From: Desulfobacteraceae bacterium
GTDB lineage: Bacteria > Desulfobacterota > Desulfobacteria > Desulfobacterales > UBA2174
DNA: 57,540 bases
Direction: 5' to 3'
Assembly: GCA_011042305.1 (NCBI GenBank)
Contig: DQXI01000214.1
Location: 1-57,540 of the forward strand
A program made the position numbers and the translations under genes. The first letter of the stretch is position 1. The number at the start of each line of letters is the position of its first letter. Shown here in pieces: positions 2,126 through 34,195 of this stretch. The notes beneath the pieces are model-generated. The model did no database searches. It saw only the letters and a list, made by a program, of their open reading frames with translations, and was not told the DNA's origin.

Positions 2126-2214
2126 CGTCTCTCACCGGCGCCGCCGCACGGTTGCGGCGGCTGTTTGATCCGTCCCCCTGAGGGGAGCTGAAGGAAATTT
2201 TTCGTAGACCCTGC

Positions 2215-2243
2215 AACTTAGGAGAATCACCACGACTGGTCAA
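2215..2243 (-). promoter_or_regulatory. candidate sigma70 promoter of thrS (TTGACC-17 nt-TAAGTT on the minus strand)
   Basis: Reverse complement of 2238-2243 is TTGACC and of 2215-2220 is TAAGTT, with an exactly 17-nt spacer. It lies about 90 nt upstream of the thrS ATG. Confidence 0.35.
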
Positions 2244-2267: not shown

Positions 2268-3386
2268 ATGGTCGCAAACCAAGACGCGTTGACCCAGGCC
2301 GCCGCGCGTTTTTCCGGCTGCCCCGTCATCGCCGTGGACCTGGAAGCCGACTCGATGTACCACTTCCGGGAAAAGGTCTGCCTGCTGCAGATGGCCGCCG
2401 CCGGGGAAAGCGTGGTCATCGACCCGCTGGCCGTTTCCGACCTGTCAGCCGTGGCCCCGCTGTTTGCCAGCGCCGATATCCGCAAGATCTTCCACGGCGC
2501 CGATTACGACGTGCGTTCGCTGTACCGCGATTTCGGCATCGTCATCGACAACCTTTTCGACACCCAGATCGCCGCCACCTTTCTCGGGTTTACCGAGACC
2601 GGCCTCGACAGCATGCTGCGCCAGTGCTTCGGCATCCGGCTGGACAAAAAATTCCAGAAAAAGGACTGGTCCCGGCGTCCATTGCCCGAGGAGATGGTCT
2701 CCTACGCGGCCCGGGACGTGATCTACCTGGAACCCTTGGCAGAACGGCTGCGGGCCGAGCTGGAGGCCAAGGGGCGGCTTTCATGGGTCGAGGAAGAGTG
2801 CGACCTGCTGCGCCAGGTGCGCCCGCCCGAGCCGGACGGCAGCCCTTTGTTTCTGCGTTTCAAGGGCGCCGGACGCCTCGACCGGCGCAGCCTGGCGGTG
2901 CTGGAGGCGCTGCTGCAGCTGCGCAGCGCCATCGCCGCCCGATGGGACCGTCCCCTGTTCAAGGTGCTCGGCAACGCCGCCCTGCTGACCCTGGCCAAGG
3001 AAAAGCCGACAACCCCCCAGGCCCTTTCGGCCTGCAAGGCCCTGAGCGCCAAGCAGATCGCCATCCACGGCGAGGCCGTCCTGGCCGCCGTCGACCGCGC
3101 CCTCAGCCTACCGCCAAACCGGCTGCCGCGCTACCCGCGACAGCGTCCCCAGCCGATAGCGCCCGAAGTTCCCGATCGCATTGCCGCCTTGCGGGCCTGG
3201 CGCGACCGCAAGGCCCGCAAGCTGGGCCTCGATCCGGCGGTCCTATTCAACAAGGCCCAACTCACGGCCATCGCCCGGGCCTGCCCGCGCCGCCTGGAAC
3301 AATTGCGCCAGATCCCGGAAATCCGCCGCTGGCAGTTCAACAGCTTCGGCCGCAACCTGATCGCCGTGCTCAGCAAGGTGAAGTAG
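2268..3386 (+). CDS. rnd: ribonuclease D (DEDD 3'-5' exonuclease plus HRDC domain)
   Basis: 372 aa. Exo motifs VIAVDLEADSM and HGADYDV are present, followed by an HRDC-like C-terminal half. The size matches RNase D. Confidence 0.88.
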   Translation: MVANQDALTQAAARFSGCPVIAVDLEADSMYHFREKVCLLQMAAAGESVVIDPLAVSDLSAVAPLFASADIRKIFHGADYDVRSLYRDFGIVIDNLFDTQIAATFLGFTETGLDSMLRQCFGIRLDKKFQKKDWSRRPLPEEMVSYAARDVIYLEPLAERLRAELEAKGRLSWVEEECDLLRQVRPPEPDGSPLFLRFKGAGRLDRRSLAVLEALLQLRSAIAARWDRPLFKVLGNAALLTLAKEKPTTPQALSACKALSAKQIAIHGEAVLAAVDRALSLPPNRLPRYPRQRPQPIAPEVPDRIAALRAWRDRKARKLGLDPAVLFNKAQLTAIARACPRRLEQLRQIPEIRRWQFNSFGRNLIAVLSKVK

Positions 3387-3497: not shown

Positions 3498-4415
3498 CTA
3501 TGATTCGAGGGTAAAGTGACGCACGAGGGGAAGTTTGCGCTCGGCCACCCGCTGGTAGGTTTCAGCCGGGTAGCCGAGGGCGATGACGGCGCGCACCGTT
3601 TCGTCGGGCGCTAGGCCGAGGCGGGCGGCAGCGGCCCGATCGTTCTGTAAGGCCGAGACGGCGAAGCCGATCAGGCAGCTTCCCAGGCCCATGGCATGGG
3701 CGGCAAGCAGAATCTGGCCGGCCGCCAGGAGGCAGTCCTCGACAGGGCAGCTTGCCCGCCGCGAGGCGATAACGACGGCCGCCGGGGCCCCGTGGAAGAG
3801 CCAGTCTCGGCCGGTGGCGCGCCAGTCCGCCAGTTTTTCTTCGGCGACGGCGTAGTAGTCACGGTAGTAGGCGGCCAGTTGCGGTTTGCCCACCAGCCGC
3901 ATCAGGGCCCGCAGCCAAGGACGCGCCGCCTGGCGGTTGAGCCTGGCAAAAAAAGCGGCCACGGCATTCATCAGTTCCATGACAGCGGCCCGGTTCGGCA
4001 ACAGGGTAAAGGTCCACGGCTGACAATTTGTGCCAGAAGGGGCGCTGATGCCGATTTTCACCAGGTCCTCGAGCCGCTCCAATGGCACCGGTTTGTCCTT
4101 GAAATTGCGACAGCTGCGCCGCGATCCCATCAGGCGCACCAACTGCGCCAGGTCGAACTGACCCGGTGGCAGCCAGCGCGAATCGGAGGAAAAGGAAGAA
4201 AAACGGATCGTCTCGGCGGACAGGGAGCCAACGCGGACAGCATCCACCGGACAGGCGGCAGCGCAGTGGCCGCAGTTAAGAGACTGGTCGCCCACCACCC
4301 GGGCCTTGTCGCCGACCATGGCCAAGGTGCCGGCCGGGCAGACGCGCACGCAAAGGCCGCAGCCGATGCAGCGTTCGGTGTCGATGCGGGTAGTGACGGT
4401 GCGCTCAGGGATCAT
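3498..4415 (-). CDS. 4Fe-4S dicluster ferredoxin domain fused to a nitroreductase-family domain
   Basis: N-terminus has CIGCGLCVRVCP and CGHCAAACP cluster motifs. The remaining ~230 aa look nitroreductase-fold (RRSCRNF...PWTF...IALGYP). Confidence 0.8.
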   Translation of the reverse strand: MIPERTVTTRIDTERCIGCGLCVRVCPAGTLAMVGDKARVVGDQSLNCGHCAAACPVDAVRVGSLSAETIRFSSFSSDSRWLPPGQFDLAQLVRLMGSRRSCRNFKDKPVPLERLEDLVKIGISAPSGTNCQPWTFTLLPNRAAVMELMNAVAAFFARLNRQAARPWLRALMRLVGKPQLAAYYRDYYAVAEEKLADWRATGRDWLFHGAPAAVVIASRRASCPVEDCLLAAGQILLAAHAMGLGSCLIGFAVSALQNDRAAAARLGLAPDETVRAVIALGYPAETYQRVAERKLPLVRHFTLES

Positions 4416-5354: not shown

Positions 5355-5553
5355 CCGCCCACCGGTGACGTTGAGGGGCCCGGCCGGTCATGTCGGTAGC
5401 CGCTTCAGAGACGGGAAAACAACCGCAGACAAGCCACAAACGGAAGGAGACCGATTGGGGCCTGCAACTGGCTCGCGCCGGCCAGCGGCCAAATTTTCGA
5501 CACGGCCAGCTACCACCGTCACCTCGACGATTGGTTATGACGCCTTGCCCCCA

Positions 5554-6162
5554 TCAATCGAAAGCCATGTCGGTTTTCCACACCTTCCAGACCTTGCCCA
5601 CCAGGTCCGGTCCGGGCTTGAGGGTCATCTTGCCCGGCCGCCAGCCCGACGGGGTGGCTTCGCCGCCCTTGCTGTTGCGCACCAGCTGAAAGGCCTGCAC
5701 CTGGCGAAGCGTCTCCTCGACGTTGCGGCCCACCGGCGGCGTGAGGACCTCGTAGCCCTGGATGACGCCGTCGGGATCGATGATGAAACGGCCCCGGGTT
5801 TCCACCCCGGCCTGGTCGTCATAGACGCCGAAGGCGGCGCCCACCTTGCCGCCGACATCCGAAAGCATGGGAAAGGGAACCCCGCCGGCGACCATCCTGG
5901 ACAGTTCCACGTCGTTCCACATCTTGTGCACGAAGACGCTGTCGATGCTCATGGACAGCACCTGCACGCCCAGATCCTCATAAGCCTTGTTCTTTTCGGC
6001 AACTGCCGAAATTTCCGTCGCTCAGACGAAGGTGAAATCCCCCGGGTAGAAGCACAGCAGGACCCACTTGCCCAGGTATTCGGAAAGTTTCACGGAAACG
6101 AATTTGCCTTGGTGATAGGCAGGCGCGGCAAAATCCGGCGCCTTGCGGCCGACCATGATCAT
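5554..6162 (-). CDS. peroxiredoxin (AhpC/Prx1-like) with selenocysteine (UGA at 6022-6024) at the peroxidatic position
   Basis: ATG at 6160-6162 is preceded by GGAGG. ORFs 6022..6567 and 5554..5967 share one frame (6024-5967=57 nt) and are separated by a single TGA. The joined protein reads ...[43 protein letters not shown]..., the canonical FTFVCPTE Prx motif with Sec in place of Cys. A hairpin follows the UGA, and selA is in the same window. Confidence 0.85.
5994..6011 (-). promoter_or_regulatory. SECIS-like hairpin downstream of the Prx UGA
   Basis: mRNA reads UGA GCG ACG GAA A-UUUCGGC-AGUU-GCCGAAA. That is a 7-bp stem with a 4-nt loop containing G-U, at nt 22-23 counted from the U of UGA, as expected for bacterial SECIS elements. 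Confidence 0.6.
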
Positions 6163-6533
6163 GGGACTCACCTCCTTTGCGGTTGCCGATGGGGTTGGAG
6201 AATCAGTTGCCGGGGCCGGCTCCTCCCCAACGAGCCCACCGCTGGGGCGGGCGCAGCCGACTTCCATTTCTTCGGCCATTGGACTTCCTTTCGCTTTTAG
6301 AGTTGGCACAGACTCTCTGAGAATCCTTACCAATTTTTTTAATGAGTGAAAAGCAAAATGGCCGAATCTTCGAATGCCCGGCTCCCGGTCTTCTGGCAGC
6401 GGCAGTACGCGTGGGCCCGCGGTTGACCGGCAGAGCGAAATGTGAAAAAAGGGATCACCGTTTTTTCCCCGCGGTGACAGGGCGCATCGATTCCCGCCGC
6501 GGCAATCGGCGTCCTTCGATCGGACAGAAAGGA

Positions 6534-8270
6534 ATGCCCATGGTGGCCCCCAAAAATGATGCCGCAACGGCAGGTACGGAAGGACAAAAACCGTTGGATT
6601 TCATCCGCCAGATCGTGGCCGAAGATGTGGCCGCCGGCGTCCACGGCGGGCGGGTGGCCACCCGTTTTCCGCCGGAGCCCAACGGATTCCTGCACATCGG
6701 CCATGCCAAGTCCATCTGCCTCAACTTCGGCATTGCCAGGCAGTTCGGCGGCACCTGCAACCTGCGCTTCGACGACACCAACCCTTCCAAGGAGGAGATG
6801 GCCTACGTCGAGTCGATCCAGACCGATGTGCGCTGGCTGGGCTTCGACTGGGAGGACCGCCTCTTTTACGCCTCCGACTACTTCGACCGGCTCTACCGGT
6901 TCGCCGTGGCCCTGATAGAAAAGGGAAAGGCCTACGTGGACGACCAGAGCGCCGAGCAGATCCGCCAGTCCCGCGGCACCCTGACCCGGCCGGGGATTCC
7001 CAGCCCGTACCGGGACCGGTCGGTGGCGGAAAACCTCGACCTGTTCGAACGCATGAAAAACGGGGAATTTCCCGACGGCAGCCGGGTGCTGCGGGCCAAA
7101 ATCGACATGGCCAACGCCAACGTCGTCATGCGCGACCCCACCCTCTACCGGATCCGCAAGGTGGCCCACCACCGCACCGGCGACCACTGGTGCATCTACC
7201 CGCTCTACGATTTCGCCCACTGCCTCTCGGACGCCATCGAGGGAATCACCCATTCGATCTGTACCATGGAATTCGAGAACAACCGGGAGCTGTACGACTG
7301 GATCCTCGAGACCCTGGAAATTCCCGACCGGCCCCGCCAGTACGAGTTCGCCCGCCTCAACCTGACGCGCACGGTGCTCAGCAAGCGCAAGCTGCTCCAG
7401 TTGGTGGACGAAAAGATCGTCGACGGCTGGGACGACCCGCGCATGCCCACCTTGAGCGGCCTGCGCCGCCGCGGCTTCACCCCCGAGGCCATCCGCAACT
7501 TCTGCGACCGCATCGGCGTGGCCCGGGCCCAGAGCACGGTGGACTACGCCCTGCTGGAGCACTGCCTGCGCGAAGATCTCAACCGCCGCGCCCCGCGGGT
7601 GATGGCGGTGCTGCGACCGCTGAAGCTGGTCATCGAAAACTACCCGCAAGGTCAAACCGAAACCCTGGAGGCAATCAACAACCCCGAAGACCCGGCGGCC
7701 GGCACCCGGCCGGTTCCTTTCGGGCGGGAGATTTACATCGAACGCGACGACTTCATGGTGGATCCGCCCAAGAAGTGGTTCCGCCTGGCGCCGGGACGCG
7801 AAGTGCGGCTGCGCTACGCCTATTTCATCACCTGCACCGAGGCGGTCACCGATCCGAAGACCGGAGAAATAACGGAACTGCGCTGCACCTACGACCCGGC
7901 CACCCGCGGCGGCGACGCCCCGGACGGCCGCAAGGTCAAGGGGACCCTGCACTGGGTGGCGGCCCACGCGGCAATAGCCGCCGAAGTGCGCCTCTACGAC
8001 AACCTGTTCACGGTGGACAACCCCGCCGAGGTGGCAGAAGACAAGTCGTTTCTCGACCTCGTCAACCCCGAGGCCTTGACGGTACTCGACGGCTGCCGCC
8101 TGGAACCGGGCCTGGCCGCCGCGGCCCCCGGGGATTTCTTCCAGTTCGAGCGCCTGGGCTATTTTTGCGTCGATGCCAAGGACAGCCGCCCGGGCCGGCC
8201 CGTGTTCAACCGCACCGTCACCCTGCGCGACACCTGGGCCAAGATCAAGCAGAAGCAGTCGAAATCCTGA
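6534..8270 (+). CDS. glnS: glutamine--tRNA ligase
   Basis: [25 protein letters not shown] (HIGH), RFDDTNP and VLSKRKL (KMSKS equivalent). The start is placed at the internal ATG 6534 (MPMVAPK...), because the upstream part of ORF 6342.. has no homology-like sequence. Confidence 0.95.
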
Positions 8271-18742: not shown

Positions 18743-20185
18743 ATGCATCATCCACCTTCAGATGAAGCCGGCAAAGCGCGCCACCATCTTCTGCGCCAGC
18801 TTCCGGCCATCGACCAACTGCTTGTCGCCGCCCGCGCCGACCACCGCCTGGCCGACGCGCCGCCGGCTCTGGTGACCCGCGTGGCGCGCCAGACCGTGGC
18901 CGACCTGAGGGCCGCCATCACGGCCGGCCGGCCGGTGGATCCCACGGAACTGGGTCTCGAAGCGATCCTGGCGCAAATGAACGCCTCCATCAAGGAAGCC
19001 TTGCGCTACCGTTTGCGCCGGACCGTCAACGCCACCGGCATCGTGGTGCACACCAACCTGGGGCGCAGCCTCCTTGCCGAAGCGGTGGTGGACAATCTCC
19101 GCCACGTGGCCAGCCGCTACTCGAACCTCGAGTACGACTTGACCAGCGGCCGCCGCGGCTTGAGATACACCGCGGTGCATGACATCCTGTGCGAAATCAC
19201 CGGCGCCGAGGCCGCCATGGTGGTCAACAACAACGCCGCGGCGGTGCTCCTGTCCCTGGAAACCCTCGCCGCCGGGCGCGAGGTGATCGTTTCCCGCGGC
19301 GAGCTGGTGGAAATCGGCGGCTCGTTTCGCATCCCGGACGTGATGGCCAAGAGCGGGGCCATCCTCAAAGAGGTGGGCTCCACCAACCGCACCCACCCGC
19401 GCGACTACCTCAACGCCATCGGCCCGCACACCGCCCTGCTGCTCAAGGTGCACACCAGCAACTACGCCATGGTGGGCTTCACCGCCGAAGTGCCCCTGGC
19501 CGAGATGGTGGCCCTGGGCCGTGAGCATGGCATCCCGGTGATGAACGACCTGGGGTCGGGCAATTTCGTGGACCTGTCCGCCTTCGGGCTGCCCGGCGAA
19601 CCCACGGTGCAGCAAACCGTGGCCACCGGGGTCGACCTGGTGACCTTCAGCGGGGACAAACTCCTCGGCGGCCCCCAGGCCGGCATCATCCTGGGACGGG
19701 CCGACACCATCGCCAAGATCCGGCAAAACCCCATCAACCGGGCCCTGCGCATCGACAAGTTGACCCTGGCGGCCCTGGAAGCCACGCTGCGCCTCTACCG
19801 GGATCCCGAACAGGCGGTGGCCCAGATCCCCACCTTGCGCATGCTCACCGCATCCACCGCCCAGCTGGACGCCCGGGCCCACGCCCTGGCCGCCCGGGTC
19901 GAGGCGGCGGCCGTGCCGGGACTCAAGGTGACGGTTTTGGATGCGGCCTCCAAGGCCGGCGGCGGGGCCCTGCCGTTACTCAACCTGGCCACCCGCTGCG
20001 TGGGGCTGCGATCCGAGGCCATGTCCGTGGACGCCCTGGAGCGGCACCTGCGCGCTTTTGACCCGCCCATCATCGGCCGCATTGAGAACGATACCCTCCT
20101 TTTGGACGTGCGCACCCTGGCCGACGACGAACTGCCCTTGATCGCATCGGCGCTGGCCGACCTGACGGAGAGGCAAGACAGATGA
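18743..20185 (+). CDS. selA: L-seryl-tRNA(Sec) selenium transferase
   Basis: 480 aa with the FSGDKLLGGPQAGIILG PLP-lysine block and the characteristic N-terminal LLRQLPAIDQLL region. Confidence 0.93.
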   Translation: MHHPPSDEAGKARHHLLRQLPAIDQLLVAARADHRLADAPPALVTRVARQTVADLRAAITAGRPVDPTELGLEAILAQMNASIKEALRYRLRRTVNATGIVVHTNLGRSLLAEAVVDNLRHVASRYSNLEYDLTSGRRGLRYTAVHDILCEITGAEAAMVVNNNAAAVLLSLETLAAGREVIVSRGELVEIGGSFRIPDVMAKSGAILKEVGSTNRTHPRDYLNAIGPHTALLLKVHTSNYAMVGFTAEVPLAEMVALGREHGIPVMNDLGSGNFVDLSAFGLPGEPTVQQTVATGVDLVTFSGDKLLGGPQAGIILGRADTIAKIRQNPINRALRIDKLTLAALEATLRLYRDPEQAVAQIPTLRMLTASTAQLDARAHALAARVEAAAVPGLKVTVLDAASKAGGGALPLLNLATRCVGLRSEAMSVDALERHLRAFDPPIIGRIENDTLLLDVRTLADDELPLIASALADLTERQDR

Positions 20186-33172: not shown

Positions 33173-34195
33173 TTATTTCCGGTGTTTTTCCACCGCGGCA
33201 CGGATATCGGCCAGAATCTCCTCCGCCGGGAGCCCTTTTGCCTTGGCCTCGGCGATCCACTTGTCCGTCATCGGCTTGAGCCGCTCATCCCAGCGGGCCT
33301 TTTCCGCCGCATCCAGGGAAATCACCTCCACCTCGTAGGTCTCTTTGGACCATTCCACCGACTCCTTCACGTGGTTGTCCATGTACACCCCGGTCCACTC
33401 GCTCTGCTCGGCAATCAGGTCTTCCATCACCTGCTTGACATCCGCCGGCAGGCTGTTCCAGCGATCCATATTCATCACCACGGCAAAGGGATAGATCACG
33501 GTGTCGATGAGGGTCACATAGCGGCAGGTCTCGGCGAACTTGAAGTCCTTGAGCACCTCCAGCGACGAGAGCAGCCCCTTGATCACGCCCTTCTGCAGGG
33601 CCTCGGGGGTGTCGGACATGGGCATACCCACCGGGTTGGCACCCAGCGCCCCGAGGATCTGGGCCGCCGGTCCGCTGCCGCGCAGGCTCAGGCCCTGAAG
33701 GTCTTCCAGGGAACGCACCGGCACCTTGCTCATGATGTTGGACTGGGCCGTGGTGAACAGCGCCAGCACCTTGACCTTGGCGAACTCCTCGGGCTTGTAC
33801 TTGTTGAACAGGTCCAGTAGCACCAGGCTGCCGGTGCGCGCGTCGGGGATTCCCACCGGCAGCCCGGTGGCGTTGGTCACCACGAAGCGCCCCGGCTGGT
33901 AGGCCATGCAGAGGCAACCGATGTCGGCCTGGCCGGCGATCACGCCGTCCATCATCTCCTTGGCCCCCAGCAGGGTGCCGCCGGGAAAGGTGTTCACCGC
34001 CACCTTGCCGGCGGTGCGCTTTTCGACTTCCGTCTTCCAGCGTTCCATCTGCACGCAGGGAAAGGTGGGCGCCGGGGGGAAATTGGCGTAGCTCAGGGTA
34101 ATTTCCGCGGCCGGAACCGCAGGCGCCAACACCGCCGCCAGCCCAATGGCCGTCGCCAGACCGATTGCAACGCGACAACGCATCCAACGTTTCAT
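33173..34195 (-). CDS. dctP: TRAP transporter substrate-binding protein (DctP family)
   Basis: Signal peptide MKRWMRCRVAIGLATAIGLAAVLAPAVPA, 340 aa, in an operon with dctQM. Confidence 0.88.
   Translation of the reverse strand: MKRWMRCRVAIGLATAIGLAAVLAPAVPAAEITLSYANFPPAPTFPCVQMERWKTEVEKRTAGKVAVNTFPGGTLLGAKEMMDGVIAGQADIGCLCMAYQPGRFVVTNATGLPVGIPDARTGSLVLLDLFNKYKPEEFAKVKVLALFTTAQSNIMSKVPVRSLEDLQGLSLRGSGPAAQILGALGANPVGMPMSDTPEALQKGVIKGLLSSLEVLKDFKFAETCRYVTLIDTVIYPFAVVMNMDRWNSLPADVKQVMEDLIAEQSEWTGVYMDNHVKESVEWSKETYEVEVISLDAAEKARWDERLKPMTDKWIAEAKAKGLPAEEILADIRAAVEKHRK

Follow-up and report, generated by a model that had tools for sequence, protein, structure and literature searches.

A selenocysteine peroxiredoxin gene, prxU, with a predicted bacterial SECIS element in a Desulfobacteraceae genome

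Introduction

Is a peroxiredoxin reading frame that is split by one UGA a pair of gene fragments, a pseudogene, or a gene for a selenocysteine (Sec) protein? The question is raised by a locus on contig DQXI01000214.1 of a Desulfobacteraceae bacterium (GenBank assembly GCA_011042305.1), analysed here as one stretch of 57,540 nucleotides, which we call the window. Two minus-strand open reading frames (ORFs), 6022..6567 and 5554..5967, share one frame, and reading of the sequence finds a single TGA as their sole separator. Our analysis indicates with high confidence, on comparative sequence evidence, that they are parts of a single gene, prxU (minus strand, 6279 to 5554), that is intact and most probably encodes a functional Sec-peroxiredoxin and contains a selenocysteine insertion sequence (SECIS) element. 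A first-pass annotation of the window had put forward a Sec peroxiredoxin with a bacterial SECIS that looks like two ORFs. Its ORF and TGA coordinates were all recovered on re-reading, and each test that we ran speaks for its central claim.

Sec-peroxiredoxins are an established group. For Eubacterium acidaminophilum, one was demonstrated by experiment (Sohling 2001, cited with the motif TxxU in Table 1 of PMC13188914). Deltaproteobacterial members are on record in two papers: a 2006 count of 25 selenoprotein families places this one in Syntrophobacter, Syntrophus, and Geobacter (PMC1794560), and a 2013 paper notes prxU in genomes of Desulfobacterales (PMC4046663). Specialists would expect a Sec-peroxiredoxin in a Sec-using Desulfobacterota genome.

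The window protein belongs to the PrxU family

Profile searches were run on the product with Cys substituted for the stop. The NCBIfam equivalog NF040737 (peroxi_PrxU), whose cutoff is 270 bits, aligns to the 241-residue form from profile position 2 to 233 of 233 and scores 407 bits. A 202-residue form that begins at an internal ATG scores 389 bits and covers only positions 35 to 233. In Pfam, AhpC-TSA is matched at E = 4e-36, together with 1-cysPrx_C, and the score for the AhpC equivalog TIGR03137, 183 bits, falls short of its cutoff of 272. The UGA falls within P79-G-D-F-T83-F-V-U86, which fits the motif P-x3-T-x2-[U/C] as it is defined in PMC13188914. Identity is 77% to the nearest database protein and 92% to the nearest genome locus, from a Desulfobacteraceae metagenome-assembled genome. 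By these measures the window prxU is a further, new-sequence member of the established PrxU family, from which it differs in nothing that defines the family. Like E. acidaminophilum PrxU and the NF040737 members, it has a full-length profile match and a predicted Sec in P-x3-T-x2-U. It also resembles the family in lacking a C-terminal resolving Cys and in having its putative SECIS directly downstream of the UGA, inside the coding sequence.

The relatives of solved structure are typical 2-Cys peroxiredoxins, with a best match of E = 2e-48 and residues 41 to 227 aligned. The window protein shares the fold and active-site residues of this Prx1/AhpC type (4fh8, 5zte, 1qmv, and AhpC 1yep). It differs in having Sec in place of the peroxidatic Cys and Thr in place of the resolving Cys, the GEVCPAGW of the solved structures reading GEATPSGW, and in two additions: an N-terminal arm of 39 residues whose Cys is invariant, and a further Cys 10 residues ahead of the Sec. 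Thioredoxin-dependent peroxidase activity is predicted for the window PrxU from this family membership.

UGA is conserved at the peroxidatic position

To see how the codon is kept, loci were collected from 185,579 species-representative genomes. The close set comprises the best 80 related loci, which match residues 1 to 241 or nearly so, and 78 loci plus the window make up an aligned set of 79 sequences that is gap-free over the hairpin discussed below. TGA stands at the peroxidatic position in all 79 loci, the window counted, in which the codon was read. In two more loci, L056 and L070, an in-frame stop likewise occupies this site, so that 81 of 81 loci are interrupted there, again with the window counted. 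The alignment and these counts agree with the earlier placement of the TGA at the position of the peroxidatic Cys of peroxiredoxins.

A like-for-like pattern, Y-P-G-D-F-T-F-V-x-A-T-E, was then scanned over the same genomes and gave at least 120 TGA matches versus 14 TGC/TGT matches. After de-duplication, a wider set of 194 distinct Sec (TGA) forms and 15 Cys (TGC/TGT) forms was obtained among the matches listed. The 194 Sec forms come from many phyla among the species-representative genomes; the first-pass annotation had called Sec-peroxiredoxins known from a few anaerobes.

A conserved hairpin follows the UGA

A stem beginning 10 nucleotides (nt) past the UGA carries a loop with its G at +22 and its U at +23, the U of UGA being +1. 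Re-reading of the sequence thus recovers the hairpin UUUCGGC-AGUU-GCCGAAA as it was originally described, loop spacing included. When the 56-nt region is folded, z is -2.85, beyond what chance would give, and an equally good fold occurs in only 2 of 200 shuffles. The legend to Fig. 2 of PMC13188914, which summarizes Zhang and Gladyshev 2005, gives four criteria for the bacterial SECIS consensus: an apical loop of 3 to 9 nt, an upper stem of 4 to 16 bp, a UGA-to-loop spacing of 16 to 37 nt, and a minimum free energy (MFE) of -7.5 kcal/mol or below. The corresponding values in the window are 4 nt (AGUU), 7 bp, 17 nt, and, for the hairpin alone, -9.5 kcal/mol. The loop also follows the rule of a G among its first two bases, then usually G or U, with flanking bases that can pair, as it reads A-G-U-U.

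Like the Escherichia coli fdhF-type SECIS, the window hairpin is a stem-loop just 3' of the UGA within the ORF, with a small apical loop in which G is followed by U. As in bacterial SECIS elements, the first and last loop bases can pair (GGUC or AGUU). Unlike the fdhF element, in which the loop G-U lies at +23/+24, it is short, with a perfect 7-bp stem and no bulged U.

Every close relative repeats both the TGA and the hairpin, and in the aligned set 99.5% of cells are paired. Changes on both sides of a pair occupy 46 cells, compared with 10.1 +/- 2.3 in shuffled alignments (0 of 500 as high) and at most 15 in slid registers, and the covariation score is 0.260 compared with 0.122 in shuffles (0 of 500). 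RNAalifold independently recovered the same 7-bp stem. All three varying pairs connect third codon positions, so the covariation is not explicable by constraint on the protein. The pair between the third positions of the Ile and Glu codons occurs as UA, CG, and AU, and in the wider set as GC too; that between Ser and Ala as GC, AU, GU, and UA; and the loop-closing pair between Ala and Val as AU, GC, GU, and UA. Some variants in the wider set swap Glu for Asp, and the pair is thereby kept.

The wider set allows the hairpin to be compared between Sec forms and Cys forms. The mean number of pairs formed, out of 8, is 7.76 in the 194 Sec forms versus 5.93 in the 15 Cys forms (Mann-Whitney p = 3e-13), and the 7-bp stem is intact in 158 of 194 versus 2 of 15. 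The loop G-U is invariant among the Sec forms (194/194, as N-GU-N' with flanks A..U, G..C, G..U, or U..A), whereas it is found in 5/15 Cys forms (Fisher p = 9e-14). The contrast in stem and loop indicates that the hairpin is kept only where the UGA needs recoding, and we predict that it is a bacterial SECIS that acts in SelB binding and read-through. With its synonymous covariation, invariant loop G-U, and decay after UGA has changed to UGC or UGU, the PrxU family offers an unusually clean natural experiment on this element.

Two further observations concern the hairpin. One true Cys form (L093, minus strand, about 5968..6003; TGT) still has 8 of 8 pairs and a GGTC loop, as would be seen if Sec had only recently given way to Cys and the SECIS had yet to decay. 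In the window itself (5975..6030, minus strand), a lower helix pairs the UGA (UCUGAGC) with GCUUAUGA downstream and encloses the hairpin, with an MFE of -18.5 kcal/mol. This helix was considered as a part of the element that sequesters the UGA and was rejected, being specific to the window and absent from the consensus fold of the relatives.

Two starts and a conserved N-terminal arm

Translation from the conserved start, ATG 6279..6277, yields 241 residues with Sec at position 86. The resulting 39-residue extension fits the PrxU profile end to end and adds 18 bits to the NF040737 score. Its motif, M-x-E-x-x-x-x-G-C-A-R-P-T-G-G-x-V-G-E, is present in all 79 aligned sequences, with the Cys in 79 of 79, and the core GCARPTGGxVGE is found in 185 of the 186 Sec forms with complete upstream sequence. 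In the DNA that encodes the arm, third codon positions vary freely while the peptide is retained. Because the peptide is conserved and has its own Shine-Dalgarno (SD) sequence and ATG in the window and in relatives, we take the extension as real and the gene as 6279..5554. Firmicutes members of the family have a divergent arm, MSYCDRP..., in place of GCARPTGGxVGE.

The first-pass annotation had chosen the downstream ATG with its SD sequence, for a protein of 202 residues with Sec47. The ATG and an AAGGAGG ahead of it are indeed there, but the conserved start lies upstream of them. The internal site has its own signature. Of 187 Sec forms, 185 have an SD-like tetramer ahead of the equivalent Met, with the consensus AAGGAGG at -14 to -9, and codon choice across this region is biased in favour of the SD sequence: Glu is encoded by GAG in 79% of cases versus 41% gene-wide (Fisher p = 1e-33) and Lys by AAG in 67% versus 47% (p = 8e-11). 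Several database entries are called from the internal Met, the equivalent of Met40. ATG 6162 may therefore serve as a second, internal start that yields an arm-less 202-residue isoform; alternatively, the internal SD could be a retained ancestral ribosome-binding site.

The alternative that survives best is that the short form alone is functional, as a one-selenol enzyme with no resolving residue of its own, for which thioredoxin or a small thiol would be the direct reductant, the extension being no part of the enzyme. It draws on the strong, conserved, SD-biased internal site and on the entries that begin at the internal Met, and the E. acidaminophilum protein is said to be about 203 residues long. 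Opposed to it are the near-universal extension peptide with its free third positions and its own SD and ATG, the place of that extension within the NCBIfam profile, and a Sec form without the arm that has regained a C-terminal resolving Cys (L128, described below). We consider it very unlikely that the extension is dispensable in this way; the long and short forms may coexist. The gene model is fixed as a single 241-codon selenoprotein gene, neither two fragments nor a pseudogene.

Pseudogene and sense-codon explanations

A pseudogene would require a Cys-peroxiredoxin in which TGC or TGT became TGA by a nonsense mutation, with the hairpin a coincidence within the coding sequence for I-S-A-V-A-E-K. 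A single transition or transversion would suffice for that change, true Cys forms of the family exist, and the conserved peptide also constrains most of the hairpin. However, all 81 close loci have the stop at this one codon, as do 194 distinct sequences spread over many phyla, and both halves of the gene are under purifying selection: across the 79 loci each shows strong protein conservation, with no further lesions. The earlier proposal was to be abandoned if relatives had TGC or TGT here and the window copy had other disabling mutations; we looked for this and found that the close loci carry the stop and that the window copy is free of lesions. Covariation at synonymous sites of the stem, at times at the cost of a Glu-to-Asp change, and decay of the stem precisely in the Cys forms are likewise not what a dead gene predicts. 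Comparative data already refute this explanation, and we assign it a negligible probability.

That TGA is a sense codon in the host (Trp as in code 4, or Gly as in code 25) could be read from the best 120 database proteins in a public collection of 5.8 billion sequences, which show W at the Sec site in 102 cases and G in one, but TGA is no general sense codon here because it ends 25 of the 37 window genes of at least 150 residues, prxU among them, an enzyme with Trp or Gly as its peroxidatic residue would have no catalytic activity, and the hosts (Desulfobacterota, Acidobacteriota, Nitrospirota, and others) use the standard code, so that practically nothing is left of this explanation.

The W and G residues are an artefact, introduced when gene callers choose code 4 or 25 for short contigs of metagenomes, and the error is systematic, with PrxU mistranslated in 103 of the 120 best proteins. 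The expectation that automatic annotation would split the gene was thus off the mark, as many callers read through the UGA, and a naming model for the family exists at NCBI.

Sec machinery in the window

The selA product matches TIGR00474 with 624.5 bits, against a cutoff of 267.9, over profile positions 1 to 454 of 455. The gene lies 12.7 kb from the UGA, in line with the first-pass estimate of about 12.5 kb. The presence of selA in the window indicates that the organism makes Sec-tRNA, and the organism probably decodes UGA as Sec.

Several negative results weigh against prxU as a functional Sec gene. A tRNA scan of the 57.5-kb window found no tRNA and hence no selC there, and the genes beside selA and prxU, to which a scan for selB and selD was limited, are neither; we infer the host's remaining Sec machinery beyond selA. 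A scan with the sigma-70 consensus found no promoter-like sites around prxU. In Rfam, no family reached its gathering threshold anywhere in the window, and no SECIS family appeared at E <= 10 over 5900..6100. We take the absent Rfam match as a gap in the library and do not count it against function. The Rfam hits that were returned (IRE_II, Xanthine, and Fibrobacter-1) are at chance level.

Conserved cysteines and a possible mechanism

The C-terminal resolving Cys is absent from the window protein, where the segment reads EATPSGW, and Cys occurs at that position in 0 of 79 loci. Two other cysteines are nearly invariant: Cys9 on the arm (185 of 186 Sec forms) and Cys76, at -10 from the Sec (all 194 Sec forms; 10 of the 15 Cys forms), the codon of which lies outside the pattern used to collect the loci. 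A 1-Sec peroxiredoxin would have no other conserved Cys as a candidate resolving residue, which is not the situation here. The description of the protein as resolving-Cys-less therefore holds for the C-terminal site, whereas Cys9 and Cys76 leave a one-selenol mechanism unestablished. A single Sec form (L128) lacks the arm Cys, and it has a canonical C-terminal EACPAGW. That an armless member has regained the C-terminal resolving Cys argues that the arm Cys matters.

A mechanism can be proposed from these features. The prxU product would be a peroxiredoxin of 241 residues with the Prx1/AhpC fold and Sec as its peroxidatic residue. During translation, the hairpin 10 nt past UGA 6024..6022 would act as a bacterial SECIS: SelB with Sec-tRNA(Sec) would bind the exposed loop G-U and deliver Sec at the UGA in place of termination. 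By analogy with the known chemistry of the family, the Sec86 selenolate would reduce peroxide and become a selenenic acid. A conserved Cys would then resolve the selenenic acid to a selenenylsulfide, to be reduced by thioredoxin. With the usual C-terminal Cys lost, the likeliest candidate for this residue would be Cys9 on the flexible N-terminal arm.

A precedent for such an arrangement comes from yeast Ahp1, in which the resolving Cys31 is N-terminal to the peroxidatic Cys. By analogy, the resolving thiol of PrxU may come from the N-terminal side. The candidate Cys of the window protein differs in lying on a disordered, tethered peptide outside the peroxiredoxin fold, and its role is predicted.

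The assignment to Cys9 has its difficulties. It is an inference, and Cys76 is an equally conserved alternative resolving residue. An AlphaFold2 monomer model was run on a 70%-identical homologue (P0017) that is listed with Cys at the active site. The peroxiredoxin domain is confident, the arm motif has pLDDT (predicted local distance difference test) values of 51 to 62 and the linker values below 50, and the monomer shows no confident docking of the arm. A fuller proposal is that PrxU swapped the C-terminal resolving Cys for a Cys on a disordered tethered peptide, which would form the selenenylsulfide with Sec, and also uses the internal SD and ATG to make an arm-less isoform, the two kinds of subunit mixing in the oligomer. 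As a whole we regard this as speculative and rather improbable.

Even so stated, the family presents two testable features, the tethered N-terminal Cys arm and the conserved internal start. A search of the accessible literature, the original 2001 PrxU paper not included, turned up no account of either, and novelty cannot be claimed for them.

A minority of ten members have the arm together with a C-terminal E[VA]CPAGW: L087 and L090 (both Cloacimonadales), L118, L133, L140, L143, L162, L187, L204, and L214. These members, with both the arm Cys and the canonical C-terminal resolving Cys, comprise eight Sec forms and two Cys forms, and may represent an intermediate stage in evolution from one resolving strategy to the other.

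Features of the locus

The coordinates of the features are collected in Table 1.

Table 1. Features of prxU and of the Sec machinery in the window
Feature	Position	Strand	Basis and remarks
prxU coding sequence, long form	5554..6279	-	241 codons including Sec86, plus TGA stop 5556..5554; NF040737 match, relatives match residues 1-241
Shine-Dalgarno AAGGAAG for the upstream start	6284..6290	-	Read from sequence; AAAGGAG(G) equally spaced in relatives
N-terminal arm motif M-x-E-x3-4-G-C-A-R-P-[TS]-G-G-x-V-G-E, residues 1-19	6223..6279	-	Conserved peptide; Cys9 codon 6255..6253
Linker, residues 20-39	6163..6222	-	Low complexity, rich in E/P/T/S/A/K; sequence and length vary among relatives
Internal SD-like AAGGAGG (6177..6171) and ATG (6162..6160, Met40)	6160..6177	-	Candidate second start, 202-residue form
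Cys76 codon, 10 residues ahead of Sec (LCFYPGDF)	6052..6054	-	194/194 Sec forms, 10/15 Cys forms
UGA, predicted Sec86, peroxidatic residue in P-x3-T-x2-U	6022..6024	-	TGA or stop at this site in all close loci
Predicted SECIS hairpin, 7-bp stem UUUCGGC/GCCGAAA, loop A-G-U-U	5994..6011	-	Covariation, RNAalifold, bacterial SECIS criteria
EATPSGW, residues 207-213, Thr209 in place of the resolving Cys	5641..5661	-	Alignment to 4fh8 and 5zte; no Cys in 79 loci
selA, L-seryl-tRNA(Sec) selenium transferase	18743..20185	+	TIGR00474 match

A crude scan of the window for other TGA-interrupted genes, which did not flag prxU itself, returned candidates at 33696 and 44481. Both look spurious, one being antisense to a gene and the other a normal stop with the following gene in the same frame. 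Since prxU escaped the scan, its negative outcome for the rest of the window carries little weight.

Neighbourhood

The neighbours of prxU in the window are unrelated to it: a divergent glnS upstream and, downstream, a gene for an SDR oxidoreductase. Weak terminator-like sites lie around prxU, one of them at 5463..5448, downstream of the stop. In the glnS ORF (6342..8270, plus strand) the profile match begins at residue 84/105, so that the ORF starts about 85 to 105 codons earlier than the match. The true glnS start is probably further downstream, which would lengthen the intergenic region between it and the divergent prxU. The second gene downstream of prxU (3498..4415, minus strand) encodes a 305-residue protein whose N-terminal ferredoxin-like domain has a weak match of the HgcB/HdrA2 type and whose middle region (residues 90 to 162) has a weak BluB/nitroreductase-like match.

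Cys-form homologues occur in other settings. One (L084, 1..4980) lies in an oxidative-stress cluster with genes for catalase, a rhodanese/metallo-beta-lactamase protein, an isochorismatase, and a rubrerythrin/ferritin-like protein. A Desulfovibrionaceae contig (L098) has a tandem pair of Cys-form genes on its minus strand, at 2208..2243 and 3069..3104. In Desulfoferula mesophila (L081), a gene with AIRS and AIRS_C domains, which are common to SelD, PurM, and ThiL, lies at 6061..6723, about 2.3 kb downstream of the Cys-form peroxiredoxin gene.

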